Positions 36,089-54,722 of a stretch of DNA of 64,000 nt are shown one piece after another. Numbering within the stretch: position 1 is the first letter of the stretch; each line of letters opens with the position of its first letter. Position numbers and translations under genes: made by a program. Source of the DNA: an uncultured Clostridia bacterium (lineage in GTDB: Bacteria > Bacillota > Clostridia > Christensenellales > Borkfalkiaceae); the NCBI GenBank assembly GCA_947625095.1, contig CANQMX010000002.1, forward strand, positions 58,429 through 122,428. The letters run 5' to 3'. Below the pieces are notes generated by a model that made no database searches, had not been told where the DNA came from, and was given only the letters and a program-made list of their open reading frames with translations.

Positions 36089-36106
36089 ATCTGGTAAACC
36101 TCCGTT

Positions 36107-36207
36107 CTTGCAAATCTGCAAGTTTTATTTTATGCTTTTATTATATCTTACACAACTGTAATTGTAAAGCATTTTTTATGCCTTTTCGTGAAATTTTTTA
36201 TTTTTTT
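36107..36207 (-). promoter_or_regulatory. Repeated promoter-operator module P1
   Basis: Minus strand TTTACA (36163-36168)-17 nt-TATAAT (36140-36145); spacer holds TTACAGTTGTGTAA; downstream palindrome CTTGCAGATTTGCAAG; upstream A/T tract; about 95 bp nearly identical to P2. Confidence 0.75.
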
Positions 36208-37185: not shown

Positions 37186-37592
37186 AGAAACCCCCTCCTC
37201 CCTCTTTCTTCTTCGTCGTGGTCTTTAATGACCCGCATATCAAACCCGCTCTGGATGAACTTGTCACACAAAGCGTCGTTAACCCCGTTTCCGAGATAGG
37301 TATATATGAGCATCCACTCGTCGCAGTCATAACTTACGTTGAGGAACTCGTTTAGACTGTTTCTGACTCGGTTCTGGTACTCCAAATTGTTAGCCTTGCT
37401 CCTAAACGGTTCCGTCTTACAGGCGTCTCTTGAACACCACGAGAGAACTTTTCTGTATAAGTCTTGCTCCGTTTCAACTCTTTTGAGGCTGAAATAGAGG
37501 TTCGACTTTTTATCGAGGATAAGTTCTTCTTCGCCGTTGATAAAACTGCCGGGAAACAGCATCATCAATTCCCGAACTCTCTTGTTAATCAT
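37182..37592 (-). CDS. Hypothetical protein (136 aa)
   Basis: Track ORF; 4-nt overlaps on both sides. Confidence 0.6.
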   Translation of the reverse strand: MINKRVRELMMLFPGSFINGEEELILDKKSNLYFSLKRVETEQDLYRKVLSWCSRDACKTEPFRSKANNLEYQNRVRNSLNEFLNVSYDCDEWMLIYTYLGNGVNDALCDKFIQSGFDMRVIKDHDEEERGRRGFL

Positions 37593-38095
37593 ATTGCCAC
37601 TTTGCCTCCTATTACCTTATCGAGTAGACCGTCGTACAACGCTTTGTATGTGTCCCTCTCCACTCTCGTTTTTGTTAATTCGTCGGTTACATCCTTGGCG
37701 ACGCCCGCATCTTTTTTAACAACCTCGTCGGCGGAGTTCTTTTTCCCAGACGCATCCGGTTCTATTCCGAGGCTTATCATAAGGGCGGCGTTTATCATAT
37801 CCATTTCATATTTGGTACAGGTCGCAACGTACTCTCCTATCCTGTCCACCGATACGGAACATACTTGCTCGCACAAAGCGATGGATGGCCTTTCAGAACT
37901 ACGGATGTCTATGTGCGTAGGCAAGTCCGTTTTGGGCCTTGTAGTAAGGTAAACTATCTCTACAACCGAACTGTGGCGATTGCAAGAATTGTTTGAGACG
38001 ATTATTGCCGGACGCCCCGCTCGCTGCTCGCTACCCTCTTCTTGATAGCCGCTTACGATGTAATAAATTTCTCCTCTGTCAATTTCTCCGTTCAT
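37589..38095 (-). CDS. PemK/MazF-fold toxin-like protein with about 55-aa C-terminal extension
   Basis: RGEIYYI...GSEQRAGRPAIIVSNN...VVEIVYLTTRPK.DLPTHIDI...ALCEQVCSVSVDRIG parallels the chromosomal MazF at 9169; extra charged helical tail. Confidence 0.65.
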   Translation of the reverse strand: MNGEIDRGEIYYIVSGYQEEGSEQRAGRPAIIVSNNSCNRHSSVVEIVYLTTRPKTDLPTHIDIRSSERPSIALCEQVCSVSVDRIGEYVATCTKYEMDMINAALMISLGIEPDASGKKNSADEVVKKDAGVAKDVTDELTKTRVERDTYKALYDGLLDKVIGGKVAI

Positions 38096-41919: not shown

Positions 41920-42239
41920 TATTCAGCCCCCATCAAATCCTCGACCGTTGCGCTATCTCCAATATAGATGTCTCTCTCAATTCCGAGACCGTAGCGCCCA
42001 CGATGATTCTGCAAATCCGAAAGCATTATGTATCCCCATTCCCACTCGTAAATGTGGCAATATCCAAACAGCATCCAGTCTCCGTTCTCTTGTTTCTCTG
42101 CCTCTGTAATGAGCCACGTCCCTGCACCCGTAGGGTTAAAATACTTGACGAGGACTGTCGCCTTGACCCCCTTGCCGTCTTGGGAATACAGTGGATGTCT
42201 CTCAAACTTCTTTTCGATTGACTTTGTAAGTAACTTCAT
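41919..42239 (-). CDS. DUF2958-like protein
   Basis: MKLLTKSIEKKFERHPLYSQDGKGVKATVLVKYFNPTGAGTWLITEAE matches my recollection of the DUF2958 N-terminal pattern (PLYSQ...KFF.P...WTWY.TE). Confidence 0.6.
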   Translation of the reverse strand: MKLLTKSIEKKFERHPLYSQDGKGVKATVLVKYFNPTGAGTWLITEAEKQENGDWMLFGYCHIYEWEWGYIMLSDLQNHRGRYGLGIERDIYIGDSATVEDLMGAE

Positions 42240-42252
42240 AACCTTCCCTCCA

Positions 42253-42669
42253 TTAAACGTCCAGCCCGAACGCCTCTGCAACTTTCCATAGATTGCCGCC
42301 AAGATGTCCGACCTTAAACCAGCGTGTAAATCTCTTACCCGTGCAATCGTACTCTGAATAGATTCGAGTAGCGCACTCGTCGTAGAGATAATCTAAAACC
42401 TCTTGTTTGGTGCCGTCGAACTCTAATGGGTCAGCATAGATAACAACGCAACCCTCGCCATCCGAGTCATAGATAATCGTGTCTTTGGGCTTATTTTCGG
42501 AAAGTCTGCGCAACTTTTCACGCAATTCTTGAATCCGGCCCGTTGCAGACCACCTGTCGAGAATTTCTCTGCGTTCGTTTCCGGTCTTTCCCATCAGTTG
42601 ACTGTGACGAAGGGCAAACATTACTCTTAAAAACCCGTCGTAGTTTCTGTTGGGCGTGCAAACGTTCAT
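42253..42669 (-). CDS. Hypothetical protein (138 aa), first gene of accessory operon 2
   Basis: Start moved to ATG 42667-42669 (MNVCTPN) behind GAGGAGG; the track TTG start lies in the repeated palindrome. Confidence 0.6.
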   Translation of the reverse strand: MNVCTPNRNYDGFLRVMFALRHSQLMGKTGNERREILDRWSATGRIQELREKLRRLSENKPKDTIIYDSDGEGCVVIYADPLEFDGTKQEVLDYLYDECATRIYSEYDCTGKRFTRWFKVGHLGGNLWKVAEAFGLDV

Positions 42670-42684
42670 ACCAGCCTCCTCTAT

Positions 42685-42778
42685 CTTGCAAATCTGCAAG
42701 TTTTATTTTATGCTTTTATTATATCTTACAGAACTGTAATTGTAAAGCGTTTTTATGCCTTTTCGTGAAATTTTTTTG
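42685..42778 (-). promoter_or_regulatory. Repeated promoter-operator module P2
   Basis: Minus strand TTTACA (42741-42746)-17 nt-TATAAT (42718-42723); perfect palindrome TTACAGTTCTGTAA (42726-42739) in the spacer; CTTGCAGATTTGCAAG palindrome downstream. Confidence 0.75.
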
Positions 42779-42845
42779 GAATTTTATTTTTTTCATTATT
42801 GCGTGTATCGTTTGTGTGCGCCTTATGCCCTCGCTCGAATGAATA

Positions 42846-42867
42846 CGCCCGCCACACAGGGCGGGCG
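42846..42867 (-). other. GC-rich hairpin 16 nt downstream of the VR2 stop (DGR target-recognition hairpin and/or terminator)
   Basis: Minus strand CGCCCGCC-CTGTGT-GGCGGGCG; same loop and similar spacing as the hairpin after VR1 (51658-51683). Confidence 0.6.
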
Positions 42868-42883
42868 ATTCTTGGAGTAGAGA

Positions 42884-43693
42884 TTATACGCAAAAGCCGA
42901 GGCACACGCCGTTCGAGTTGTCAGCGCCGTCGCCGTCGACGTAGCCACCGCCGTAGACGTAGAGGAAGTAGTAGGAATCGTCAACGCGAGGAGAACGGAG
43001 CCACCAGTAGCCAGTGGAGCCACCAGACCTGCGCTTGATGCGATTATTCTCGTCGTCTTCAAAATATGCGTACTGCGCTCCCTCATCCGCTACGTCGTCA
43101 CCATCCAGCCCGCACACCTCCGATTCGGAGAAAAGGAACAGCTTGTCCACTGTGGTTCCGACTTCTCGTGAGCCGCCGCCAATCGTTGTGGTTTTTTCGA
43201 CCTGCTTGATGACGGCCTTTGCCGCATCTGGTAGCAATCTGTACAGCCTCTCCATATAGACCGTGCGCATCTTCGAGTCTTTCCATCCGCCCTCGTTGGA
43301 CCATACCTCGTTCATCTCGTACCAACCGTCGATAATCCCCTTGAACCCGAACGTGATACCGGCACGATTTGACGTTCTCGCAATCCTATCGTGGTTGAAC
43401 CCAAGGATTACGAGTTTCACCACCTCTCCGGTGAGCAATTCGACGTCTTTTTCTTGCCCGACCCAGAAGTGTTTTTGCGCACACCCGGACTCGGCAATTC
43501 TTGCAATTTCCGCCCAACTCATATTGTTGAGCGAGTCCACGTCTTGCGAAACGTGGTAGTTGTGCAGAGCCGCAAATACCGGACAACTGCTCTCGCACCC
43601 AAGGCTTTTTAACTTTGGGCATAAGCAGTTGGTCCTGCACAATTCGTCTTCCGCCATCTTTCTGGCTCTTTCGTTCATCTTTGTTTCATTCAT
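42884..43693 (-). CDS. Second DGR target protein (269 aa), non-structural context
   Basis: Start ATG 43691-43693 behind AGGAGG; C-terminal about 200 aa homologous to the C-terminus of fibre 51698..53311 (ILGF.HD...GITFG...NEGGW..S.MR...); ends ...WWLRSPRVDDSYYFLYVYGGGYVDGDGADNSNGVCLGFCV, encoded by VR2. Confidence 0.85.
   Translation of the reverse strand: MNETKMNERARKMAEDELCRTNCLCPKLKSLGCESSCPVFAALHNYHVSQDVDSLNNMSWAEIARIAESGCAQKHFWVGQEKDVELLTGEVVKLVILGFNHDRIARTSNRAGITFGFKGIIDGWYEMNEVWSNEGGWKDSKMRTVYMERLYRLLPDAAKAVIKQVEKTTTIGGGSREVGTTVDKLFLFSESEVCGLDGDDVADEGAQYAYFEDDENNRIKRRSGGSTGYWWLRSPRVDDSYYFLYVYGGGYVDGDGADNSNGVCLGFCV
42890..43024 (-). repeat. DGR variable repeat VR2
   Basis: 135 bp aligned by hand to TR 50682-50816 without gaps: 18 mismatches, all where the TR coding strand has A. 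Confidence 0.9.
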
Positions 43694-43710
43694 ATATTTA
43701 ATCCTCCTAT

Positions 43711-43926
43711 TTAATCTTCGTAATCGTCCTCTCCCGCATAGGAAACCGACGTGATTTTGAGTCCCTCGTAGTCCACTGCGCACAGTAGCCTGTCTATAAG
43801 TTCGCTACGAGGCATTTGCTCAATTTCTTTTTCTGCAATCTCCATCGCCTCTTTTTTGCTGCTTGCCGAAATGGAGAAAACAGCATCTGCAACCGGTCTG
43901 AAATTTACGTCATATATCTTTTTCAT
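43711..43926 (-). CDS. Hypothetical protein (71 aa)
   Basis: Track ORF. Confidence 0.55.
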   Translation of the reverse strand: MKKIYDVNFRPVADAVFSISASSKKEAMEIAEKEIEQMPRSELIDRLLCAVDYEGLKITSVSYAGEDDYED

Positions 43927-43939
43927 ATACCCGCCTCTC

Positions 43940-44374
43940 TCACACGCAGTAATACGAGCCGTACTTCTTCAAAGCCTTGTTGAGTCCGGCTCTCAAAGCC
44001 TTGTTTTCAAGGACCTCTTCGAGCGTATATCCGCACGCATCAAGCGTATCTTCAAGTTCTTCCGTGTACCCGAACTCGTGATTGGCTAACTCGTAACTCC
44101 ACATTTGGTAGATGTACTTGCTGCCCGTCTTATCCGCCAGCACGGCCGCCTTGCGCTCCTCTTCTTGTCTTTCCATCATCTCGTGGAAGGCATCGGCGTC
44201 TGTCCTTTTGATGTAACCGCCTCCACCTATGGAGAATATCTTGTCCGTGTCGTTCACTGTCAGCCCGAACTTTTCCATCATTTTTTCAAACTGGTCTTGC
44301 GAAAATGCAAATCCGAACGGAAATTCGTTGACTTCTTTCTGGTGCTTTTCTTTCAACGCTATGTATTCGTTCAT
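43940..44374 (-). CDS. Hypothetical protein (144 aa)
   Basis: Track ORF. Confidence 0.6.
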   Translation of the reverse strand: MNEYIALKEKHQKEVNEFPFGFAFSQDQFEKMMEKFGLTVNDTDKIFSIGGGGYIKRTDADAFHEMMERQEEERKAAVLADKTGSKYIYQMWSYELANHEFGYTEELEDTLDACGYTLEEVLENKALRAGLNKALKKYGSYYCV

Positions 44375-44583
44375 CTTACTTCCTCCCCGTAGATGTTATA
44401 ATATTTGATAGGCCCCGCACCGACCTCCGGTTCAACGTGGATACACGAGTATGTGAGAACTGTAACTCCTTTCTTCTGGCGGAGTCCAAGCGCATATTTG
44501 CTTGCCTTTTCTACTGACCGAAACCGTTTCTTCTTCATTCCCTTGCTTTCTTTCCAAAAGTAGAGCCACACCGTCATACGCAC
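44371..44583 (-). CDS. Hypothetical protein (about 70 aa)
   Basis: Track ORF; start uncertain (ATG 44577 alternative). Confidence 0.5.
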   Translation of the reverse strand: MRMTVWLYFWKESKGMKKKRFRSVEKASKYALGLRQKKGVTVLTYSCIHVEPEVGAGPIKYYNIYGEEVR

Positions 44584-44858
44584 CCCCTCGCTCCTCTGTC
44601 GAGGACCTCTCTTACTTTCTCGCTGTAATGATATGAGGCATCAAACGGATGAAACAGAAGAGCCTTAATAAACTCCTCGTCCGGAGTAGTGCTTTGCCAG
44701 CCGTCGATGTTCTCCCCGAACCCGTTTGCTCTATCGCCAACCCTTTCAATTTGGTCGGCAAAATCAATCATCTTTTCTCCGTTCAAGTAAACTTCTGCAA
44801 CTCCCTGCGTTACTGAATACCGCTTACGCTTTACCTCAAATACATATTTCATACACAC
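44574..44858 (-). CDS. Hypothetical protein (94 aa)
   Basis: Track ORF. Confidence 0.55.
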   Translation of the reverse strand: MCMKYVFEVKRKRYSVTQGVAEVYLNGEKMIDFADQIERVGDRANGFGENIDGWQSTTPDEEFIKALLFHPFDASYHYSEKVREVLDRGARGCV

Positions 44859-44859
44859 C

Positions 44860-45357
44860 TCACTCTATACAAAAGTCAGACAGACTTCTATATTCCCTCA
44901 CTTCGTTGACAACTCCGTCTTTGAGGGCTTTGCGCATAATCTCAAAGATGTCTTCTCCGTGAGAAACGGCAACTTTCCCGAACCCGGACTTGACTTCTGT
45001 ATAAGAAACCAAGTATGTCGGACCCTCTTTCGAGTAACGTTTGAACCTCTTTTCGAGGTCTTGCAGGTCAATGAGTTCGGCAAAAAACAATTCGTCGTCC
45101 GGAATTATTTGCGAATAATCCTCTCCGAGCGGATAACGTGTAAAGTATTCCTTTACTGCTGCTTTCAGCGCTTCTTCGACTTCCGCTCTGCCTTCGCCTG
45201 CAAAGTAAAAGTCAATGTCTGCGCAGCCGCCATTTCCGTCGTTGTTATACCACCCGACTTTCTTGCCTTTATAGTAGATGCTGCCTTGACAGCCATCCCA
45301 CTCCCGGCCCTTAAAAGTCTTGATGTTTCTGATTTCAAACCCATAAATTGACGCCAT
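44860..45357 (-). CDS. Hypothetical protein (165 aa)
   Basis: Track ORF. Confidence 0.6.
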   Translation of the reverse strand: MASIYGFEIRNIKTFKGREWDGCQGSIYYKGKKVGWYNNDGNGGCADIDFYFAGEGRAEVEEALKAAVKEYFTRYPLGEDYSQIIPDDELFFAELIDLQDLEKRFKRYSKEGPTYLVSYTEVKSGFGKVAVSHGEDIFEIMRKALKDGVVNEVREYRSLSDFCIE

Positions 45358-45372
45358 CTTATATACCTCCGT

Positions 45373-45570
45373 TTAATATATCCACATTATCAGCCAGTCC
45401 ACCTTTTCGAGGTGCGCTCTCTTAATGCCGATTTTTTCCTTAAATGCCTTGAACGCAGATTTCAGCGTGTGAAACATAAACCGCATTTCATATCCGAACC
45501 ACTCCAAGTGCTTGCCCTCGTATCTCATCTTGATTATCCCGTTCTTGACTTGGTAGAAAACTGTATCCAT
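45373..45570 (-). CDS. Hypothetical protein (65 aa)
   Basis: Track ORF. Confidence 0.5.
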   Translation of the reverse strand: MDTVFYQVKNGIIKMRYEGKHLEWFGYEMRFMFHTLKSAFKAFKEKIGIKRAHLEKVDWLIMWIY

Positions 45571-45579
45571 AGTCCCTCC

Positions 45580-45909
45580 TCAATCTTGCAACTCGCAGAC
45601 TTTCTTGTAGTCAACAATCTTGCCAAACTCGTTAACCTGCTGCATACAGGTCTCTACCGTGCAGGGCGTAAGGGTTATGCGCTCTCCGTCATAAACGTAC
45701 TTTCTCGAACAGTTATACTTCCTGCTGGGGACTCTTACGTCCTTTCCTTCGCAGATGGACATAACTCTGTCCCACACTCCGCCGGTCCATTGACTGCCCC
45801 TAAAAACTTTAAGGGCAATACCGTCTATCCAGTTATACAAATCTACCGAATATCCCTCATCTATGTATCTATTTGCGGCATCCACTATCCTCTTTATCTC
45901 ATTTGACAT
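45580..45909 (-). CDS. Hypothetical protein (109 aa)
   Basis: Track ORF. Confidence 0.55.
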   Translation of the reverse strand: MSNEIKRIVDAANRYIDEGYSVDLYNWIDGIALKVFRGSQWTGGVWDRVMSICEGKDVRVPSRKYNCSRKYVYDGERITLTPCTVETCMQQVNEFGKIVDYKKVCELQD

Positions 45910-46162
45910 TGCTGTATCCCTCCAATCTTTTCTTGTCTTTTCTTACTTTGCGGAACTCCAAGCCCCACATCTCCGATATGAAGCCGATAACCTCATCCGC
46001 CGGAAGTTCTGCGAGCGTCTCGGCCAGTCCATCGTTGTCGTCCATATCCGCCCACTCCATTGCCTGTTCTCTCCACTGCTCAACGGTGTAGTCTCGGTAC
46101 ATCCCGAACTCTCCACCCTGCAAGTCTCTCGAAACTCTATATCTTATTTCCTTATCCATCAT
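45899..46162 (-). CDS. Hypothetical protein (87 aa)
   Basis: Start moved to the ATG that overlaps the upstream stop as ATGA. Confidence 0.5.
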   Translation of the reverse strand: MMDKEIRYRVSRDLQGGEFGMYRDYTVEQWREQAMEWADMDDNDGLAETLAELPADEVIGFISEMWGLEFRKVRKDKKRLEGYSNVK

Positions 46163-46557
46163 TGCTCCTCCGACCACCCTATAAGGGTTAACTCGTAATC
46201 TCTAACCTCCTTCTCGGTAAGCAACCTTGAATAGACAAGGATGTCGTGGAAGTTGCTCGTGAGGCTATCCTCTCTTCTTATCAATCCTTCCATTGGCTGA
46301 CATCCGGGAGAAAACCCCCTCAACCTCATTCCGTATGTATAGGTAACTGCCTTCTTCTCTCCCGCCAAAACATCGAAGTCGATTATATCCGCAGAGGGCT
46401 TGTTGTCCGCCCTCAATCTGCGAATCTGCTCGACCTCGTTGGGGAATTGGCAAACCCCGCCGAAAAACTTCTCGCAAAATGCCGCAATCGAATGGAACTT
46501 TGAGGTTCCATATACCGAGTACGAGCCGTCTTGATAAATAATCTGGTATCGTGTCAT
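46159..46557 (-). CDS. Hypothetical protein (132 aa)
   Basis: Track ORF; C-terminal YGMRLRGFSPGCQP...ILVYSRLLTEKEVRDYEL motif noted but not assigned. Confidence 0.6.
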   Translation of the reverse strand: MTRYQIIYQDGSYSVYGTSKFHSIAAFCEKFFGGVCQFPNEVEQIRRLRADNKPSADIIDFDVLAGEKKAVTYTYGMRLRGFSPGCQPMEGLIRREDSLTSNFHDILVYSRLLTEKEVRDYELTLIGWSEEQ

Positions 46558-46571
46558 ATCTTCTTACCTCC

Positions 46572-46916
46572 TTAATCTCTCGTAAGCAAGTCGTAGAGTT
46601 CTTGCGTTTCCTGTCTGTCGTGAATGGGAAGCGGATGTCCTGCAAGTTCGCTGAATCTTCCATCGCTCGAATAGGCAATGTTTCCACCAAACATCCATCC
46701 CAGATGTTCCGGCCTTGCTATCGGCTCCAAGAACTTATAACCGTTCCTGTCGCAAACCTTGACCAAGTTTTCCGGCGGATTGCTTTCGTCGATTTTTATG
46801 TGGCCATCTTCGCACACCAAGAGGAGTTGCTCGTATCTGCTGCTTATTCCTCCGTTGGTGCAATCGCAATCTCCGTTGCCCTTTGCTACATACACTTTAA
46901 TGGGTAATGCCTTCAT
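46572..46916 (-). CDS. Hypothetical protein (114 aa), first gene of accessory operon 3
   Basis: Track ORF; ATG preceded by GGAGGTT. Confidence 0.6.
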   Translation of the reverse strand: MKALPIKVYVAKGNGDCDCTNGGISSRYEQLLLVCEDGHIKIDESNPPENLVKVCDRNGYKFLEPIARPEHLGWMFGGNIAYSSDGRFSELAGHPLPIHDRQETQELYDLLTRD

Positions 46917-46927
46917 TGTGAACCTCC

Positions 46928-47036
46928 AAATCTCTTACTGAATGGTAAGATTTATTTTGTACTCCTATTATATCGTACAGAACTGTAAGTTGTAAAGCGT
47001 TTTTAAGCCTTTTTATGAAATTTTTTATTTTTTTTG
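46928..47036 (-). promoter_or_regulatory. Repeated promoter-operator module P3 (diverged copy)
   Basis: Minus strand TTTACA (46991-46996)-18 nt-TATAAT (46967-46972); TACAGTTCTGTA palindrome in the spacer; downstream inverted repeat tcttac/gtaaga; upstream A/T tract. Confidence 0.7.
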
Positions 47037-47062
47037 TTTTTGTAACGATTTTATGTATTTCT

Positions 47063-47185
47063 GGTTCGGAAATGACTGTTGAGCGGTATTTATCACAACA
47101 TAAATACCGTTGATGACAAAATATCGGTTCGGAAACTATCAAAGTAAAGTAGAGTAAAGAAAAGTATAGCAAAGTAAAGAAAAGC
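47063..47185. repeat. Non-coding region with direct and inverted short repeats (iteron-like)
   Basis: ggttcggaaa at 47063 and 47116; cggtatttat/ataaataccg inverted repeat (47084-47109); agtaaag x3 and aaagaaaag x2 between 47142 and 47184. Confidence 0.5.
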
Positions 47186-47348
47186 AAAGAAAAATACTCG
47201 TGCGCTCCCACCATTCTATCCGACCCAATAGAAACGCCTTATTTAAGCCGATAAGCGTCAATAGTAAAGTATGAGTATTTATAGGTAAAAGACGAAAAGT
47301 CTCGTTAGGTGGGTTGTAGGAGCCTTATTTTCTGCTTTTGGGCAAAAG

Positions 47349-47370
47349 AAAAAAGCCCACGTTATGGGCT
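47349..47370 (-). terminator. Rho-independent terminator after yafQ-like gene
   Basis: Minus strand agccca-taacg-tgggct followed by tttttt. Confidence 0.7.
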
Positions 47371-47396
47371 TTCCATAAAGTGGGCTATTCTTGCGG

Positions 47397-47672
47397 TCAA
47401 AACAGGTCTGAATGCGAACCCGTTCTTGACAGGTAGAGAATTATCTGTTCTCCATTCTTCTTGTAGATGAGCAACCAATCCGGTTCGATGTGGCACTCTC
47501 GGAATCCGTCATAGTTCCCGGACAACTCGTGGTCTCTGTATCTCGCATCGAGTTCTTCGTCGTTTGACAGTTTCTCAACGATGCCGAAAAGTTTATCGAG
47601 GTCTTTCCCTTGTCGCCGCACGAGTTTGAGGTCCTTCTTGAACTTTGTGGTAAAGCGAACTTCGTATCTCAT
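47397..47672 (-). CDS. yafQ: YafQ/RelE-family mRNA interferase toxin
   Basis: MRYEVRFTTKFKKDLKLVRRQGKDLDKL...HELSGNYDGFRECHIEPDWLLIY typical YafQ pattern; 4-nt overlap with the antitoxin gene. Confidence 0.85.
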   Translation of the reverse strand: MRYEVRFTTKFKKDLKLVRRQGKDLDKLFGIVEKLSNDEELDARYRDHELSGNYDGFRECHIEPDWLLIYKKNGEQIILYLSRTGSHSDLF

Positions 47673-47944
47673 ACTCCAAGCGCCTGCCTTAACGAATTGA
47701 TGTCTCTGTACCCCGTGTAGTTTTCGGGGTGCGCTTCCATTTGCTTAACCTCGTCCATTGCGGAAATGGTTTCCTCGTTCGGCAGCTTCTCGCTGACCTC
47801 AAAGGGAATCCCACGTTCGAGCAACGCACGCTTGAAGAAGATGCTTACCGCAGCGGACAACGAAAGGCCGATATTGTCGAACAACTCTTCCGCCTGTCTC
47901 TTGGTGTCTTCGTCAATGCTGATATACGTTTTCTTTGTAGCCAT
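47669..47944 (-). CDS. dinJ: RelB/DinJ-family antitoxin
   Basis: ISIDEDTKRQAEELFDNIGLSLSAAVSIFFKRALLERGIPFEV typical DinJ RHH N-terminal domain. Confidence 0.85.
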   Translation of the reverse strand: MATKKTYISIDEDTKRQAEELFDNIGLSLSAAVSIFFKRALLERGIPFEVSEKLPNEETISAMDEVKQMEAHPENYTGYRDINSLRQALGV

Positions 47945-47979
47945 ATTAACTACCTCCTTTCCTGTATTAGTATATGCTT

Positions 47980-48008
47980 ATTATATCAAAATAGAAAACG
48001 TTTGTCAA
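47980..48008 (-). promoter_or_regulatory. Perfect consensus promoter of the dinJ-yafQ operon
   Basis: Minus strand TTGACA-17 nt-TATAAT, about 35 nt upstream of ATG 47944. Confidence 0.65.
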
Positions 48009-48082
48009 ACATTTGGAAACTTTTATTTTCTAAAAGAGTAAAAAATATTCCCCCTGCTGTTAACAGGGGGAATAATCTTGCG

Positions 48083-48505
48083 TCATAGGTAATATTTGTT
48101 GCCGAGACTTGTTGCCCATCCCTCGAACCAAACGGAATCGTATGGTTTAAGGTCAGAGTATCTTTTGCGTCCGGTCCTAACAACAATTTCTCTGTACCAG
48201 TATCTTATTGCGGAAGGGATGCTTACCACAAAGGGCATCAACGGACCAAAAATAATGTTCTGGATTCCGTGGCCGCATTCGTGACGCTTAATAGACAACG
48301 AGGCGCTGTTGTTGCAGAAAAAGAAGCATCCCGCTTCAAACCCGCCCCAGTCTTTCCCGACCTCAAAGTAGACAAAATAGTGGAAACGATGAGGCTTGTG
48401 TCCGGTAACGAGGAGGGCGAGTGCGCAAACCGCTCCAACGAGAGTCATAGGAAGACCCCACGTCCACGAGAGCAACCAAAACAGAATTGCTTTAAGCGTT
48501 TTCAT
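48083..48505 (-). CDS. Multi-pass membrane protein with HExxH motif (putative membrane zincin)
   Basis: Start ATG 48505 (MKTLKAILFWLL); hydrophobic helices; KRHECGHGIQN contains HECGH. Confidence 0.55.
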   Translation of the reverse strand: MKTLKAILFWLLSWTWGLPMTLVGAVCALALLVTGHKPHRFHYFVYFEVGKDWGGFEAGCFFFCNNSASLSIKRHECGHGIQNIIFGPLMPFVVSIPSAIRYWYREIVVRTGRKRYSDLKPYDSVWFEGWATSLGNKYYL

Positions 48506-48824
48506 CACTCGTTTCCCCCTTTGTCGTATTCTTCCCCGCCTGTTTCTTCGCATAATCCTCAATCTTGTCGAACGCCGCCTGCACAAGGCTTTCAAGCAAC
48601 TGCTTTGTGAAAAACGGCTTCAAAACGGCTGGGATAATTGTCTGTAACTGCTCTACTACTATCGCCATCTTTTGCTTTCCATCGACGTCGTTGTTCTCTG
48701 CGCTGTCGATTTCTCCGGCTATGGCGGCATTTATCTTGTTCTTCACATAAAAGTACCACGAGCCGAGTGTCCCGGCGATAGTGAGTACGGCAAAAACGAT
48801 TGTTAAAATGATTTCGAGCGTCAT
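48492..48824 (-). CDS. Putative holin (LL-H-like architecture)
   Basis: 110 aa, single N-terminal TM (IILTIVFAVLTIAGTLGSWYF) plus charged soluble tail; directly downstream of the XhlA-like gene. Confidence 0.5.
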   Translation of the reverse strand: MTLEIILTIVFAVLTIAGTLGSWYFYVKNKINAAIAGEIDSAENNDVDGKQKMAIVVEQLQTIIPAVLKPFFTKQLLESLVQAAFDKIEDYAKKQAGKNTTKGETSDENA

Positions 48825-48825
48825 A

Positions 48826-49140
48826 TCAAATACCTCCTATTATAATTGCCATTAAGGCGCTAAAAAGCCCGCCCAACACTGCCGAAATAATACAACTGAT
48901 AATTGTCCGCTTGTAGTATTTCGCATTATCGGCAGGCTCGGTTTCGAGTTTTTTCAATCTGTTGCCCTGTTCCTTCTGTTCTTCGAGCATATACTTCATA
49001 TTGATAGCAAGTTCGTTGACAGAATTTGCAAGGCTGCCTATTTCCGATTGCTTTGCCTCGATGTCTTTTACACGATGTTTCAGCGACCCGATTTCGTGTT
49101 CGTGGTCGTTTAGTTTCAGTGCGATGTCGTTCTCTTCCAT
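48826..49140 (-). CDS. xhlA: XhlA-like lysis-associated membrane protein
   Basis: Start ATG 49140 (MEENDIALK); coiled-coil N-terminal part plus C-terminal TM (IISCIISAVLGGLFSALMAIIIGGI); position as in the PBSX lysis cassette. Confidence 0.55.
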   Translation of the reverse strand: MEENDIALKLNDHEHEIGSLKHRVKDIEAKQSEIGSLANSVNELAINMKYMLEEQKEQGNRLKKLETEPADNAKYYKRTIISCIISAVLGGLFSALMAIIIGGI

Positions 49141-49153
49141 AGCATTGCACCTC

Positions 49154-49333
49154 CTATTTTGCTGGCTCGCCAAGACCGCCGCAGTCTGGGCAGAGCAACT
49201 TTTCAATGTCTATCTCTTTGCCTTCGAGACAATCGTACCACACGTCGCAGGGTTGCTTACAAGGCTTTGAACTACTTTCACAAACATCACAGATATTATC
49301 TACCGTGATTTTTTGCACTTCAAGATTGGGCAT
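49154..49333 (-). CDS. Possible small Cys-rich protein (59 aa)
   Basis: Hand translation MPNLEVQKITVDNICDVCESSSKPCKQPCDVWYDCLEGKEIDIEKLLCPDCGGLGEPAK; GGAGGTGGG RBS; ATG overlaps the 3' end of the RT gene; just below the track cutoff. Confidence 0.45.
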   Translation of the reverse strand: MPNLEVQKITVDNICDVCESSSKPCKQPCDVWYDCLEGKEIDIEKLLCPDCGGLGEPAK

Positions 49334-50465
49334 AGCCCACCTCCTTATTACAATAGAATAGAGTCCGGAATAACTGTTTCATACTCCGGAGTGTGCGGTA
49401 AGCGTTACAATGTAAAAGATGACCGCACCAAGAAACGAAAGAGTCTTTGATTTTTGAGAACTCCATCCTTCCCGCATCTAACCATTGCTTGAATTTCTTC
49501 AACTTTTGTCGCATCCTCGTAATTCCTTTGCGAGCAGGTTTAACGACGACTTTTCCTGTCTCCGTAAGAAAAAACCTGTGCTTCAAGAATGTGATTCCAC
49601 GAGTGAGTTTTACGATTTGCGTCTTCTTCTCGTTGAGTTTTATCCCTATTTTCGCACACAACTCGGAGAGGTCCTTCAAACATTCTTGGAGATACTCCTT
49701 GCTTATGTGCATCATATACCCATCATCCATATACCTGCCGGACTTCCGAACCCTTCTGACCTCCTTAAAATGGTGGTCTATCGAACTCGGATACCGCAGG
49801 GCCGATATTTGAGAAATCTGACTTCCCAGACCGAGACCCTTGTCTCCTCCGAAGTCGTCTATAAGTTGGTTGATAAGACCGGACAGACGCTTATCGGAAT
49901 AAGTTTCATCGACGAGCCTTTTCAGAATATCGTGGTTGATGTTATCAAAATACTTCGAGAAATCGAACACGAGAACGTAGCCCTTTGTGCCGTATTGGCG
50001 GTAGTGTTCGTGCAACTGCCGCTTTAACCGGTTGATGGCGAAGTCTATTCCCTTGTTCTTGACACAGGCCCCATTGTCGTAAACGAATGACCGGCTGAAC
50101 AGCGGAACGAGTGAGTAGTCGCATATACATCTCTGTACAACTCTTTCGCTTATATGGACAGACTTTATATGCCTTGGCTTCCCTCGCTCCATAATGTCGA
50201 ACTCGAAGAAGCCTTTACTCTTAAACTTTCCGCTGCGCAACTGGTCGAGCGTGTTGACGACGTTCAATGAGGCGTTTGCGGTGTATCGCTGGGTGCTTGA
50301 CTTCCAATTCACACCCTTCTTGCAACACCTGTACGCCCTGTGGAGATGCTCAAAGGTAAAAACCTTATCGAAGTCTCCATACTGCTGTTCAAGCGCTACT
50401 TTCTTTGCTTCACGCTTGGCTTTTCGTCTTTGATAACGATTTTCGTGTCTTTCTTTACTATTCAT
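49320..50465 (-). CDS. DGR reverse transcriptase
   Basis: RT motifs DFSKYFDNINHD, GLGLGSQISQ (DGR-type [ILV]GxxxSQ), RYMDDGYMM (YxDD); 381 aa; TR lies about 215 nt upstream. Confidence 0.9.
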   Translation of the reverse strand: MNSKERHENRYQRRKAKREAKKVALEQQYGDFDKVFTFEHLHRAYRCCKKGVNWKSSTQRYTANASLNVVNTLDQLRSGKFKSKGFFEFDIMERGKPRHIKSVHISERVVQRCICDYSLVPLFSRSFVYDNGACVKNKGIDFAINRLKRQLHEHYRQYGTKGYVLVFDFSKYFDNINHDILKRLVDETYSDKRLSGLINQLIDDFGGDKGLGLGSQISQISALRYPSSIDHHFKEVRRVRKSGRYMDDGYMMHISKEYLQECLKDLSELCAKIGIKLNEKKTQIVKLTRGITFLKHRFFLTETGKVVVKPARKGITRMRQKLKKFKQWLDAGRMEFSKIKDSFVSWCGHLLHCNAYRTLRSMKQLFRTLFYCNKEVGYAQS

Positions 50466-50816
50466 AAAAATGTATTACTCCGTATAGCCGTGATTTGACG
50501 AAATAGGCTACTTAATTACCTACTATTAAATGGAAGTTTTCGTCGTTCTTCCACAATGCAAGAAGCGTCCAGTAGTGAATATCGGAGAATAAATTTACCC
50601 TTGCGGGAAGGTCATACACCCCTTTTGCAAAAGGCATTGATTCACGCATTATGACGTTACTATGTCGAGCCTATAAAGATTGCAAAATCCGAGGCACACG
50701 CCGTTCGAGTTGTCAGCGTTGTCGTTGTTGACGTTGCCATCGTTGTTGACGTAGAGGAAGTTGTTGGAATTGTCAACGTTAGGAGAACGGAGCCACCAGT
50801 TGTCAGTGGAGCCACC
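50466..50816 (-). ncRNA. DGR template RNA region (TR plus about 215-nt TR-RT spacer)
   Basis: Non-coding stretch between TR and the RT ATG with small palindromes (ccttttgcaaaagg about 50621-50634; cccttgcggg about 50598-50607); role inferred from other DGRs. Confidence 0.5.
50682..50816 (-). repeat. DGR template repeat (TR)
   Basis: Coding-strand sense would read GGSTDNWWLRSPNVDNSNNFLYVNNDGNVNNDNADNSNGVCLGFC, very rich in AAC codons; matches VR1 and VR2. Confidence 0.9.
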
Positions 50817-50869
50817 AACACAATGTTTACGGCATATAACCTATGATAAATTCATTCCTTCGGACAGCG

Positions 50870-51316
50870 TTAATCTACGTTGTCCTTGTACTTGCTTTGT
50901 AACTTCTTCTTCAACCCAGACAAGAGCGTCAACTCTTTCGAGATGAGTCTTGCCCAGTTCTCCCAAACCTTTGCCGGGATAGATTTCTCTTTCCCGTCCT
51001 TGTCTTTTGCGCTATAATGCGTTACAACCTTTTGCGCAACGTCCAACTGCGACGAGAGCGCTTGCAGGCTGCAAATAGCGTGGATGACATAGTTTACTCT
51101 GATTTGAGATTCTGTGGGGTTGGTAGCATAGACAGAATTTGCTGACTTTGCGTTGTTGTAAACCTGCTTTGACAGGTCCAACAGGTCCTTCGTTATAACG
51201 AAAAAGTACCGTTTCGGGAACTTGATTGCGTATCTTATCGCATATTCTTCGAGTTCCATAGCGGTTTCAAGGAACTGCACGGTGCTTTCTTCTCGGTTCT
51301 TTTCCAAGACGCCCAT
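50870..51316 (-). CDS. avd: Accessory variability determinant (Avd-like four-helix-bundle protein)
   Basis: 148 aa, helical, basic; ...FPKRYFFVITKDLLDLSKQVYNNAKSAN resembles the FPK.E...L..Q..R...SI..NIAEG pattern of the four-helix-bundle/IVS family; sits between target and TR. Confidence 0.7.
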   Translation of the reverse strand: MGVLEKNREESTVQFLETAMELEEYAIRYAIKFPKRYFFVITKDLLDLSKQVYNNAKSANSVYATNPTESQIRVNYVIHAICSLQALSSQLDVAQKVVTHYSAKDKDGKEKSIPAKVWENWARLISKELTLLSGLKKKLQSKYKDNVD

Positions 51317-51633
51317 TACCGTTTGCCCTCCACGTTTCGAGCCTCATCCGGCTCCGGTAAAACAATCTCGTCCCAATACTCTTGGTCTTTGATTTTGAGC
51401 GACTCGAAGTCAACCGTGGGGCTGACGTACTTGCCGAGGAAGAAGTCGTCGCTGGTCTTCAAGTTTCTCGAATACCAACCGGACTTGGATGCGTCCGGCT
51501 TGAACACGAGATGCCTTCTATTGGATATGACGTGAAGACGTCCATTTTCGGTATAAACAACACCCGTAAGCGCCGTTGCAACAATTTCGTCCGCCTGCCT
51601 TACTGTTTGTTTGTTCTTAAAACCTACTGTCAT
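51316..51633 (-). CDS. Hypothetical protein (105 aa) inserted between DGR target and avd
   Basis: Start ATG 51631-51633 behind AAAGGAGAAA; its stop overlaps the avd start. Confidence 0.6.
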   Translation of the reverse strand: MTVGFKNKQTVRQADEIVATALTGVVYTENGRLHVISNRRHLVFKPDASKSGWYSRNLKTSDDFFLGKYVSPTVDFESLKIKDQEYWDEIVLPEPDEARNVEGKR

Positions 51634-51657
51634 AAAATTTCTCCTTTTTGAGGTATT

Positions 51658-51683
51658 CTCTGCGCCCACACAGGGGCGCAGAG
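51658..51683 (-). other. GC-rich hairpin 14 nt downstream of the VR1 stop
   Basis: Minus strand CTCTGCGCCC-CTGTGT-GGGCGCAGAG; no T-run follows; same loop as the hairpin after VR2. Confidence 0.6.
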
Positions 51684-51697
51684 TTTCAGATTATTGA

Positions 51698-53311
51698 TTA
51701 TACGCAAAAGCCGAGGCACACGCCGCTCGAGCCGTCAGCGTAGTCGCCGCGGACGTAGCCATCGTAGTAGACGCAGAGGAAGTAGCTGGAATTGCCAACG
51801 TTCGGAGAACGGAGCCACCAGATGTCAGTGGAGCCACCCCCGTCATCAAGACTTTTAACGAGTCCGTCGTTTGCGTCGTTGGGGTCAATGTCTCCCGCTG
51901 CACTCTTGTAGTAATCGTACTGCTCGCCCTCTCCCATATAGGTGTCTGCGTAGTCCGAAATCGAGGACCAAGCGGAATTTCTTATAGCCCTCTCGGAGCA
52001 TATTTCAGCAAGCGAAAGCAGCCACAAGGAGTCATCGGACGTAACGATGTCTGTACTCGTATTGCCTGCGCTCGTTCTCTTTTTGACGGTCTTTATGACC
52101 TTTACAAGGTCGTCCGGAAGGTCTTCGAGGAGCGACTGCATCGTGCTGTTTCTCATCTCCGACTGGTCCCAACCGCCTTCATTGGTAGAACTGCCGTTCA
52201 TTGAGTAGTAGTCGGCAAGCAAATTCTTCATACCGAAAGTTATGCAAGCCTTTCCTGTACCGTCGGACAGGTCGTCGTGTTCAAATCCGAGAATAACGAA
52301 GGTTGCCGTGCCTCCCGATTTGAGTTGGACTTTCTTTTCTGCTCCAACCTTAAAGAGCGACTTTGCTCGTCCGGATTCAGCCAACGCCGCTATGACATCC
52401 CAACTCGCATTTTCAAGAGTGGGTTCCTGCGCAACGAACTTCGAGCCATTCCAGTAGATAGGCGTGTAGTCGTCGCCTATCGGAGATTTCCCAACGAGGT
52501 CCACAAGCGCAATCTCTACCGCTCCCGTTTTTCCGTTAACTTTCGTTACTGGATACGGAGGCGGATTGCTGGCGGAATACTGCTTTACGTTGTCAACGTT
52601 TCCGAGACCAACATCACCCTTTGCAATAGACACCGCTCCTGTCTTGCTGTTTACAGAGGTGACAGGGTAAGGCGGAGGGTTACTTGCAGAATATTGTCTG
52701 ACGTTATCCACATTCCCCAAACCAACATCCGCCTTTTCGTGCGTATGTGCCTTGGGGGTTCTTGCATCGGAAAGTCTGCCGTCATTGCCTTGACATACCG
52801 TCCCCGCTGCCGTGCCGAAATTTTTGTTGAACGCAGTGTTCTTGGAAAACGCCGGCTCCGCACCGACGTTCTCGGCGGTGATGTCAACCTGCCCCGTTCT
52901 GTACTTCGTTTCTGAATGACCCTTGACTCCCGTAACGGTGTTCTTCTGTGCGCCGGACTCAATGCCGTTGAGTTTTGCTTTATCTGTTGCACTCAACAGC
53001 CCTGCGGCGGAAGTCGTGGCCTCCGAAATGGTCTTATCCGCACTTCCGTCGAACTTTTCGGTTCCAATCGTAAGTGTATGATTTAATTTCTTGGCTGACG
53101 GAGCGGCGTAGGTAGCAAAAGCAGTTATCAATGAGGCAAGCTGCGAAGCAATGCTCCTGCCCGTACTTTCCGTGAGGAGCGACTTATCGGTGTAATCTTC
53201 CGAACTGACCGAACTTGACTTGCCGCTTTGAATCATAGAAAGCAAGGCTTTTAATTGGTTTACAACTTCTTGCCCTGCGCCGTCCGTAACCGGTCTATAT
53301 GATGTAGCCAA
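51698..53311 (-). CDS. Tail fibre protein, primary DGR target
   Basis: TTG start with GGAGG 8 nt upstream; duplicated DVGLGNVDNV.QYSASNPPPYPVT.VN.KTGAV fibre repeats; C-terminus ...IWWLRSPNVGNSSYFLCVYYDGYVRGDYADGSSGVCLGFCV encoded by VR1. Confidence 0.88.
   Translation of the reverse strand: MATSYRPVTDGAGQEVVNQLKALLSMIQSGKSSSVSSEDYTDKSLLTESTGRSIASQLASLITAFATYAAPSAKKLNHTLTIGTEKFDGSADKTISEATTSAAGLLSATDKAKLNGIESGAQKNTVTGVKGHSETKYRTGQVDITAENVGAEPAFSKNTAFNKNFGTAAGTVCQGNDGRLSDARTPKAHTHEKADVGLGNVDNVRQYSASNPPPYPVTSVNSKTGAVSIAKGDVGLGNVDNVKQYSASNPPPYPVTKVNGKTGAVEIALVDLVGKSPIGDDYTPIYWNGSKFVAQEPTLENASWDVIAALAESGRAKSLFKVGAEKKVQLKSGGTATFVILGFEHDDLSDGTGKACITFGMKNLLADYYSMNGSSTNEGGWDQSEMRNSTMQSLLEDLPDDLVKVIKTVKKRTSAGNTSTDIVTSDDSLWLLSLAEICSERAIRNSAWSSISDYADTYMGEGEQYDYYKSAAGDIDPNDANDGLVKSLDDGGGSTDIWWLRSPNVGNSSYFLCVYYDGYVRGDYADGSSGVCLGFCV
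51704..51838 (-). repeat. DGR variable repeat VR1
   Basis: 135 bp aligned by hand to TR without gaps: 18 mismatches, 17 at TR coding-strand adenines and 1 synonymous non-A change (CCT/CCG Pro). Confidence 0.9.
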
Positions 53312-53507: not shown

Positions 53508-54722
53508 TTAAATCCTCTTAAAGAAGATGCCGCCGATTGCCAACTTTTCGCTGGGGGTTTCTTGTTCGGGTTCCCCGACTTCCACCACGTTCGCACCTGC
53601 TGTGACTCTGCCTTTTTCATCGACTGTTACCGCAGAGTAGGACCCTGCCGTAACGCCCGTTTTGGACAGCACTGCGGCCAACTCTACTGCTTGGCTTCCG
53701 TCAAACGGTTTTGCGGCGGCGGTGACATCTCCGCTAATCGAGAAATTCTTTGACACCGCAAGTTTTTTTGCAGCATCTGCGTTCGTCGCAGAGGTTGCGC
53801 TGTCTGCCTGCGTTGCCTTGCCGACTTTTGTGGTGCCGTCAACAATGTCGGAAATTGCACCTTCGTTTGTGGTTGCCTTTTCCTTCGCCTCGTTCCAGCC
53901 ATCCTTTTCGGTGTCGGTAACAAGCCTGTGAGTTTCGTCGTCTGTTGCGTCAGCCAAAGAGCCGCTCTTGCCGAGACTTGAAACTTCCGTACTCTTGATA
54001 TAGGGGGTGAGCGCAGCGGTAATAAGTCCGTTTACGTCGTTAGCCGTCTGGAAGTCCTCTATCGCTGCGTTGAGGGCTTCTGTGGTGACATAGCCGGACA
54101 GGTCGAGTTTCTGTGCGCCCAACTTCTCCCACGCATCGCTAACCCAGATGTATTCAACGTACAGGTTTTGCGACTCTTCTCCTGTGTCTTTAACGAGGTA
54201 TATCGTTGCATCATCACCCGATTCGGGCAAGACAGAAACGACGCTTACCTTGAACTTGGGAATGGCGCTTATTTTCTGGTCCACCTCTCCTTTCGTGTAG
54301 TAGTTAACAAGGTCGTTGACCGCCTTTGTGATAAAGCCGCTTACATCCGGAATGTCGCCCGTGTTCGCCTTCTTTGCAAGTTGCGTATTAACGTAGTCTG
54401 TTGTTGCCTTTTTGTCCAGTTCTGCCTGTGTTGCGGCAGATATGGGCTTCTCGTCGTCGGACGTATTGTCAACCTTTCCAAGACCAACGTCCGCCTTGCC
54501 GATAGTGACCTCCCCGCTTTTTCCGTTTACCGAAGTGACGCTTCCGGCAATGGCATTGTCGATTCTCTGCTCGATTTCTTCGAGTGCGCCCTTGACGGTT
54601 TTCGCTTGAATCTTTTCAGATTCAACAAGAACAACTTCCGAATCCGTTTCCGGATGCAAGAGCAAAAACTCGTCTTCTCCAACCTTCTGAACGATTTGGG
54701 TTTGCTGTGTCGTAGTAGCCAT
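53508..54722 (-). CDS. Tail fibre protein
   Basis: GKADVGLGKVDNTSDDEKPIS and similar fibre motifs; 404 aa; adjacent to the second fibre gene. Confidence 0.75.
   Translation of the reverse strand: MATTTQQTQIVQKVGEDEFLLLHPETDSEVVLVESEKIQAKTVKGALEEIEQRIDNAIAGSVTSVNGKSGEVTIGKADVGLGKVDNTSDDEKPISAATQAELDKKATTDYVNTQLAKKANTGDIPDVSGFITKAVNDLVNYYTKGEVDQKISAIPKFKVSVVSVLPESGDDATIYLVKDTGEESQNLYVEYIWVSDAWEKLGAQKLDLSGYVTTEALNAAIEDFQTANDVNGLITAALTPYIKSTEVSSLGKSGSLADATDDETHRLVTDTEKDGWNEAKEKATTNEGAISDIVDGTTKVGKATQADSATSATNADAAKKLAVSKNFSISGDVTAAAKPFDGSQAVELAAVLSKTGVTAGSYSAVTVDEKGRVTAGANVVEVGEPEQETPSEKLAIGGIFFKRI

Follow-up and report, generated by a model that had tools for sequence, protein, structure and literature searches.

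A window of 64,000 nucleotides (nt) from an uncultured Clostridia bacterium (GenBank assembly GCA_947625095.1, contig CANQMX010000002.1, positions 58,429 to 122,428) was analysed, in which a prophage carries a diversity-generating retroelement (DGR) with two targets: its tail fibre and a remote second gene, the subject of this report. Positions below are those of the window, and (-) denotes the minus strand. The DGR cassette is arranged, 5' to 3' on the minus strand, as fibre, small conserved gene, Avd-like gene, template repeat (TR) and reverse transcriptase (RT). The fibre (51698-53311, -), the primary target, is a protein of 537 amino acids (aa) in which Pfam identified a C-terminal DUF6273 domain. 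It is followed by the small conserved gene (51316-51669, -), which is syntenic in relatives, by the gene for an Avd-like accessory protein of 148 aa (50870-51316, -; phrog_3206 'Avd protein of DGR', E 2.5e-7) and, after the TR, by the gene for an RT of 381 aa (49320-50465, -; Pfam RVT_1, E 1.6e-16), whose translation contains the motifs LGSQISQ and YMDD, which we take to be DGR-typical. The remote target (42884-43693, -) encodes an acidic protein of 269 aa (30.2 kDa, pI 5.0) and is called the VR2 gene here after its variable repeat (VR). Public gene calls agreed on this open reading frame (ORF), and a ribosome-binding site, AGGAGG, was read from the sequence 9 nt 5' of the ATG at 43693 (43703-43708, -).

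A repeat search of the window detected one three-copy family of approximately 173 nt (42852-43024, 50644-50816 and 51666-51838), in which a 135-nt core was defined by alignment and mismatch counting. The three cores are the TR (50682-50816, -), containing 34 adenines and lacking a downstream GC hairpin, VR1 (51704-51838, -), aligned to the TR, and VR2 (42890-43024, -), encoding aa 224-268 of the remote target. The TR and VR2 aligned over 135 nt without gaps and with 18 mismatches, all 18 on TR adenines (11 A>G, 5 A>T and 2 A>C), and 17 of the 18 fell on codon position 1 or 2. Our recount agreed with that of the first-pass annotation of this DNA, and the hypergeometric probability of such a bias, given 34 adenines in 135 nt, was 2e-13. 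VR1 likewise aligned to the TR without gaps and with 18 mismatches, of which 17 were at TR adenines (9 A>G, 6 A>T and 2 A>C) and one was T>G. Nine TR positions were altered in VR1 as well as in VR2, with the same resulting base at six, and nine were altered in VR2 but not in VR1. As these latter nine were changed in VR2 alone, VR1 and VR2 were written independently, and the substitution pattern of VR2 was, as claimed earlier, different from that of VR1. VR2 had also been described as the last 135 coding nt of its gene; the coordinates stood, but the repeat ends one codon (GTA) before the stop codon and is not strictly terminal. It lies 7.7 kb from the TR. Neither the repeat search nor a search with the 3' 21-mer described below found a third VR in the window.

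The 3' end of VR2 is formed by the invariant 21-mer GGCGTGTGCCTCGGCTTTTGC (42890-42910, -), similar to an initiation of mutagenic homing (IMH) element. It is exact in VR1 and has one mismatch in the TR, and these are its only three copies in the window. Directly 3' of both VR1 and VR2, the same 8 nt, GTATAATC, and a spacer precede a GC hairpin, with an 8-bp stem after VR2 (42846-42867, -) and a 10-bp stem after VR1 (51658-51683, -). The loop, CTGTGT, is the same and has an equal offset from the stop codon in both cases, while the stems differ. When folding was compared with that of shuffled sequence, the VR1 and VR2 hairpins gave z values of -3.6 and -3.5, respectively, and the stretch after the TR gave -0.05. 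In the BPP-1 paradigm, a 3' IMH and a downstream hairpin mark a VR as the recipient of the mutagenised copy. By analogy with it, the cis elements of VR2 would serve the same purpose, and its hairpin is probably a target-recognition element of the DGR that may double as an operon terminator. The related two-target loci that we fetched carried a GC hairpin 17-27 nt past the stop codon of both the adjacent and the remote target, wherever readable, usually with an identical loop within one phage, and the sole exception to this pairing was a frameshifted remote copy in locus L088. That copy (Christensenella metagenome-assembled genome (MAG) CAJTND010000002.1, 10001-10945) has a 1-nt frameshift in its VR, with the 3' 21-mer and hairpin intact; it could be a real casualty of the DGR or a consensus artefact of a mixed VR population.

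Comparison with close relatives indicated that VR2 is still being diversified. The exact 269-aa protein was present on seven public contigs. A sister strain, L122 (run ERR14033506), has the same operon, and its VR2 gene differs from that of the window at 34 nt. The 669 nt outside the VR contained 17 of these differences, 13 synonymous and 4 nonsynonymous, and the 135-nt VR contained the other 17, all at positions of TR adenines. The VR of L122 also had 17 mismatches to the TR of the window, every one at A. Two clusters of orthologues (93 and 58 members, at least 90% identity) showed up to approximately 10 different residues per column, and this hypervariability was limited to the VR columns, the remaining protein being nearly invariant. 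In addition, nucleotide similarity between the fibre and VR2 genes was detectable over the last 141 nt only, although the proteins are 44% identical over 216 residues, and this confinement implies that the repeat is continually overwritten from the TR. The TR has 20 variable codons, which correspond to about 3e19 theoretical peptides with no reachable stop codon. The shared 21-mer, the hairpin, the A-only changes in the VR of L122 and the VR-confined variation of the clusters together indicated that VR2 is a live target acted upon in trans. The VR2 gene thus has the attributes of a DGR target, namely an A-confined TR/VR pair, a cognate RT and Avd, 3' cis elements and ongoing diversification; the earlier claim of a second, non-adjacent target held, and we regard it as virtually beyond doubt that VR2 is genuine and active. 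As a separate observation, the VR of the orthologue P0016 reads ...NNFCYVNNNGNVNNNNADNSNGVCFGFC, almost all Asn, and resembles the unmutated TR; either a naive VR or an assembly error that fused TR and VR might account for this.

The VR2 product consists of two parts. Its N-terminal module (approximately aa 1-53; 43535-43693, -) has three predicted helices, modelled with a predicted local distance difference test score (pLDDT) of 59-73, and five cysteines (Cys19, 23, 25, 33 and 37), which agrees with the earlier description of the N-terminus as short, Cys-rich and not fibre-like. Full-length orthologues sharing 43-52% identity retain the motif E-L-C-x3-C-x-C-P-K-...-C-x2/3-C. In less closely related remote targets, an N-terminal helix leads into comparable C-x-CP or CPCC knots or into sequence without any cysteine. 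A profile search with the Cys module returned four short fragments only and no other fusion partners. In a protein of a strict anaerobe without an export signal, such a five-Cys cluster probably binds metal. Neither a signal peptide nor a membrane segment was evident in a hydropathy scan, which is not a dedicated predictor; on the Kyte-Doolittle scale the maximum of any 19-residue window was 0.88, and the first 30 aa averaged -1.09, that is, hydrophilic. This result went against the suggestion that the product is secreted or cell-associated.

The remainder of the protein is a DUF6273 domain (aa 54-269; 42887-43534, -) recognised by Pfam, by alignment and in an AlphaFold2 (AF2) model. Its Pfam match (E 6e-21, 75.5 bits) is above the curated cut-off of 23.5 bits and places the product in the family; the fibre was likewise above this cut-off. 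Residues 54-269 were 44% identical to fibre residues 298-537 (E 1e-56), which upheld the earlier claim that the C-terminal approximately 200 aa are paralogous to the end of the fibre. The AF2 model had a mean pLDDT of 88.9 and exceeded 90 across the DUF6273 domain, with the VR (aa 224-268) forming the last five predicted strands. A structure search of BFVD gave phage fibre-like and DUF6273 proteins as the best matches, and a fold search of the PDB with the VR2 product recovered neither Mtd nor TvpA. A PDB profile match to 2obb, obtained with alignment A3, was discarded, as it was due to an unrelated N-terminal extension in two homologues, P0059 (L123 39-1187) and P0075. This extra domain of approximately 115 aa, which is similar to 2obb, starts with DFDGT and has a HAD-like look, is joined in frame to the short DUF6273 protein, with a rolling-circle Rep gene following directly; Pfam recognised nothing in the extension, and the joining may be real or due to a gene call that ran on.

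The position of the VR2 gene was then considered. Downstream of the RT lie XhlA-like and holin-like genes and a RelB/YafQ toxin-antitoxin pair, and then three operons. The first of these consists of 11 closely spaced genes, among them DUF8317, DarA_C and DUF7659 genes, and ends with the VR2 gene, whose immediate 5' neighbour in operon order is the DUF7659 gene. A promoter-like site, TTTACA-18-TATAAT, matching the consensus is located at the head of the 11-gene operon (46967-46996, -), and a near-identical consensus match (42718-42746, -), starting the next operon, lies 3' of the VR2 hairpin, which is approximately 100 nt upstream of it. The gene is thus terminal in an accessory operon delimited by repeated promoters, as had been claimed. 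Three near-identical promoter regions of approximately 94 nt (36106-36199, 42684-42777 and 46933-47026, all -) were found, one per accessory operon, each composed of an A-rich upstream stretch, TTTACA, a 17-18-nt spacer, TATAAT, a hairpin in the 5' untranslated region (5'-UTR) and a ribosome-binding site. The 5'-UTR hairpin is preserved through compensatory changes (CTTGCA..TGCAAG vs CTTAC..GTAAG), pointing to an operator or RNA element common to the three. Breaks in public assemblies coincide with this repeat. The 12 kb beyond the VR2 gene encodes unassigned proteins, a MazF/PemK-like toxin, a helix-turn-helix protein, DUF5131 and a sugar epimerase/dehydratase, and no virion gene was found in this region.

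On its left side, the window contains host DNA of approximately 60% GC (positions 1-29600) with genes for SMC, PNPase, RelA/SpoT, RecJ, TGT and radical-SAM enzymes, and prophage DNA of 46% GC begins at approximately 29.8 kb. The sharp GC shift near 29.7-29.9 kb and the host housekeeping genes on the left indicated that the window spans the prophage-host junction. Neither a tRNA nor an attachment (att) site was found at the prophage end, and none of the genes in 30-64 kb was identified as an integrase; the terminal prophage gene, a candidate at first, proved to encode a sugar epimerase/dehydratase instead. This last prophage gene before the host (30192-31238, -) is NAD-dependent sugar epimerase / GDP-mannose-4,6-dehydratase-like with phage-like GC, and could be a surface-glycan-modifying moron relevant to receptor variation. 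The RelB/YafQ(ParE) pair (47397-47944, -) comes right after the lysis genes, and the MazF/PemK-like toxin gene (37589-38095, -) belongs to the second operon. A direct repeat of 74 nt (74% identity; 52590-52663 and 54466-54539), shared by the fibre gene and an upstream gene for a 404-aa fibre-like protein, encodes the motif ...VTSVN(S/G)K(T/S)G(A/E)V(S/T)I(A/G)K(G/A)DVGLG(N/K)VDN....

Related loci were drawn from gut metagenomes and from MAGs of Christensenella, Christensenellaceae and other Clostridia. The lineage of the window, with a size of approximately 60 kb, comprises L003-L006, L094, L095, L119 and L122. In this lineage, a short target of 267-293 aa stays after the DUF7659 gene and before the next operon (seen in L003, L005, L006, L119 and L122), the fibre, Avd, TR and RT are 6-7 kb upstream of it where the contig reaches, and the mismatches of the remote VR are A-only. 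A distant lineage, a large family of temperate gut phages of approximately 35 kb (L079 and relatives, IMG/VR 3300045988 contigs) whose RT is 44% identical, shows the order fibre/target 1, Avd, TR, RT, carbohydrate-binding module protein and SH3 lysin, next to which a serine integrase and, where detected, an S24 repressor are encoded on the opposite strand. The genes that diverge from these are, in order, two small ones at the place of cro, target 2 (266-278 aa in complete copies) and, on all contigs reaching far enough, one for an Hjc-type resolvase. This strictly conserved layout was seen in at least 12 contigs and in every locus extending far enough, and target 2 is clearly in an early lytic operon. 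In a third lineage, the gene for a DUF6273 protein of 285-382 aa directly precedes a rolling-circle Rep gene, with terminase and portal genes further on. Adjacent targets had 283-553 aa across the loci and remote ones nearly all 266-293 aa. In three phage lineages, the short remote target is therefore separate from the virion module and belongs to an accessory, early or replication-proximal region, and this synteny strengthened its reading as a non-structural gene. Megablast of 42000-51900 against GenBank phages gave no match; in a protein search, the phage relatives were at most 40% identical, with approximately 28-30% for Faecalibacterium phages and up to 39% for unannotated faecal phage contigs.

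On this basis, we propose the following mechanism. The RT/Avd complex would copy the TR RNA into adenine-mutagenised cDNA, which would replace, in trans, the 135-nt VR2 (aa 224-268) of the gene at 42884-43693, guided over 7.7 kb by the shared 3' 21-mer and the GC hairpin past the stop codon. The product is a free-standing, soluble and probably cytoplasmic protein of approximately 30 kDa, in which the helical five-Cys module precedes a DUF6273, putatively C-type-lectin-like, domain with the variable residues on its C-terminal strands. It would most likely be made early or independently of the late operon, because its gene is grouped with accessory or early genes and not with virion genes, and would act as a variable binder of ligands inside the infected cell. 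We give a probability of roughly 60% to this reading, that is, to a soluble, cytoplasmic, non-fibre binder that is diversified by the DGR, made early and used inside the infected cell. On the narrower point, a soluble binder outside the virion, we lean only slightly in its favour. Most plausibly, such a protein would take part in phage-host or phage-phage conflict, for example by binding variable host defence or competitor proteins. Its ligand and its part in conflict are speculative, an anti-defence or conflict role as such seems doubtful, and it is hinted at only by the neighbouring DarA_C and toxin-antitoxin genes and by known cytoplasmic sensors that a DGR diversifies (PMC10907252). It is with similar reserve that we suggest, as an improbable but attractive generalisation, that remote DUF6273 targets of the short type are, as a conserved class, early, intracellular, hypervariable binders that neutralise or sense variable defence proteins of the host or proteins of rival phages; DGR function in phages would then reach beyond adsorption into intracellular conflict.

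Several points weigh against an early-made, intracellular binder. DGR diversification classically serves extracellular binding, and the DUF6273 domain is typical of tail-fibre tips. The top BFVD match of the VR2 product was a 'tail-collar fiber protein'. The C-type-lectin assignment is taken from the literature, and the lectin matches in the PDB fold search were weak. The N-terminal helices could be a virion docking or trimerisation module. The promoters, which are sigma-70-like, were assigned by consensus matching only, and expression timing and location were deduced from gene order and sequence alone. Searches with Pfam and PHROG profiles found no anti-defence homology of the product.

In the main rival explanation, the product is an auxiliary adhesin of the virion that docks through its N-terminal helices on the fibre, baseplate or capsid and gives a second specificity, diversified independently, for the host surface or gut mucus. 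Its domain is identical in kind to the fibre tip, its top structural relatives in BFVD are phage fibre-like proteins, receptor-binding roles have been proposed for small DUF6273 targets (PMC10743442, bioRxiv 10.1101/2024.10.15.618418), and a conserved N-terminal helical module of approximately 50 aa would suit attachment. However, the gene was never found in a structural module, being in early or accessory operons in three lineages; the N-terminus is neither fibre-like nor Mtd_N, and its module is absent from the adjacent target of the same phage. An auxiliary adhesin is accordingly considered possible, although on the unlikely side.

The first-pass annotation had named superinfection exclusion and a receptor decoy among the possible functions. 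In such a role, the product would bind the host receptor, its precursor or lysis debris and thereby protect progeny or exclude rivals. In favour of it, the product is a paralogue of the receptor-binding tip, and the gene does sit among moron-like accessory genes including toxin-antitoxin modules. Without an export signal, however, the product could not reach the surface before lysis. When VR1 and VR2 of this phage were compared, they agreed at only 4 of the 17 positions at which one or both depart from the residue encoded by the TR (Tyr/Tyr at three, Gly/Gly at one). Agreement of this extent does not exceed what the frequent AAC>TAC outcome would produce, and thus gave no sign of a shared specificity. 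In the lineage of approximately 35 kb, moreover, the gene is in the lytic early operon and would presumably be silenced by the repressor in lysogens. A mask, decoy or exclusion factor is therefore clearly improbable, and the earlier interpretation as a whole was partly supported. Scarcely credible is a decaying fibre fragment, a passive TR-homologous relic or a silent spare tip cassette for recombination, since, notwithstanding the 1-nt frameshift in the remote VR of the L088 MAG and the origin of the domain by duplication of a fibre tip, the ORF is intact with a strong ribosome-binding site, neither the frame nor the N-terminal module is lost in orthologues of full length at 43-52% identity, synonymous changes account for 13 of the 17 non-VR differences from the sister strain, the lineages agree in where the gene lies, and the fibre similarity covers only 141 nt in direct orientation, so that a crossover there would remove essential genes, those of the DGR and of lysis. 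Intact frame, synonymous drift and direct-repeat geometry thus led us to reject both the 'pseudogene' and the 'spare tip cassette' reading.

Phage DGRs are usually viewed as host-range devices on tail fibres, and here a small signal-less non-fibre protein is diversified too. Should the VR2 product indeed work intracellularly, phage-host conflict would involve a programmable binder; if it is an auxiliary adhesin, host-recognition genes can sit outside the structural module. In either case the VR2 gene is a defined and testable candidate, with one gene, a known VR and natural variants.

The system resembles that of Bordetella phage BPP-1, the Mtd-type DGR, in its Avd-like gene, TR, RT, adenine mutagenesis, 3' IMH-like element with GC hairpin and variable C-terminal binding surface. 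Unlike the VR2 product, the target in BPP-1 is a single, adjacent one, a trimeric fibre-tip protein. Pfam found no match to Mtd_N (PF18454) in the VR2 product; this domain is present in some homologues of approximately 283 aa. The make-up of the product is not that of a tail fibre or receptor-binding protein either, as the 53-aa helical Cys module is its only unique N-terminal part and its gene lies outside the tail module. Secreted or lipoprotein DGR targets of the Legionella LdtA and Treponema TvpA type have a signal peptide or lipobox, for which the hydropathy scan, the only method applied, gave no indication in the VR2 product. Tentaclins (Baykov 2023) have an N-terminal lectin-like domain with the VR followed by immunoglobulin-like (Ig) domains, whereas the VR is C-terminal in the VR2 product, in which neither Pfam nor the AF2 model indicated Ig or Fn3 domains; it is therefore not a tentaclin. 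The closest solved structure was the N-terminal DUF6273 domain of the Thomasclavelia ramosa IgA peptidase (PDB 9qa6; PMC12402451; Foldseek E 1.9e-6, TM-score 0.54 query-normalised), which is part of a bacterial protease that is secreted and anchored to the cell wall and that is no DGR target. The cytoplasmic DGR 'antigen sensors' of multicellular bacteria (PMC10907252) provide a precedent for diversified lectin-like domains in intracellular conflict systems. They are, however, cellular multi-domain proteins of the NTPase type, and the VR2 product has no effector or NTPase domain; the analogy is a functional one and speculative.

Distant second targets and pairs of large and small DUF6273 targets are already published for phage DGRs. 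Many phage-associated DGRs have a non-adjacent target in the same prophage (Wu et al. 2018, PMC5758913), the Bacteroides 'Bacuni' phages have a distant target gene (PMC8143477), and in Faecalibacterium Toutatis-like phages a DUF6273 target is 17.5 kb from the TR (bioRxiv 10.1101/2024.10.15.618418); the survey by Roux et al. could not detect remote targets (PMC8144416). In the Faecalibacterium phages Lelie and CP11, a large DUF6273 target is paired with a small one, with no role assigned to the pair (PMC11792537), and Baykov et al. (2023, PMC10743442) described small single-domain DUF6273 targets flanked by helices and called the role of two targets unclear. As in Lelie and CP11 and in the 'target2' of nd4 and nd12 (PMC10743442), both targets here are DUF6273 proteins with the VR at the C-terminus of the domain. 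The identity to the Faecalibacterium phage proteins is only approximately 28-30%, however, the nd4 and nd12 targets are inside the cassette whereas the VR2 gene is remote, and the partner target here is a classical fibre and not a tentaclin. With the published non-adjacent prophage targets (PMC5758913, PMC8143477, bioRxiv 10.1101/2024.10.15.618418), the present system shares one TR and RT serving an adjacent and a remote target, A-specific mismatches and a VR at the 3' end of the gene. In those cases the expression module of the remote gene was not analysed, and three features appear not to have been noted before: the location in early or accessory operons, consistent from lineage to lineage, the lack of export signals and the Cys-rich N-terminal module. 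What distinguishes the present target from those published is that it is a short stand-alone protein, encoded in an accessory or early operon, at a position conserved in three phage lineages.

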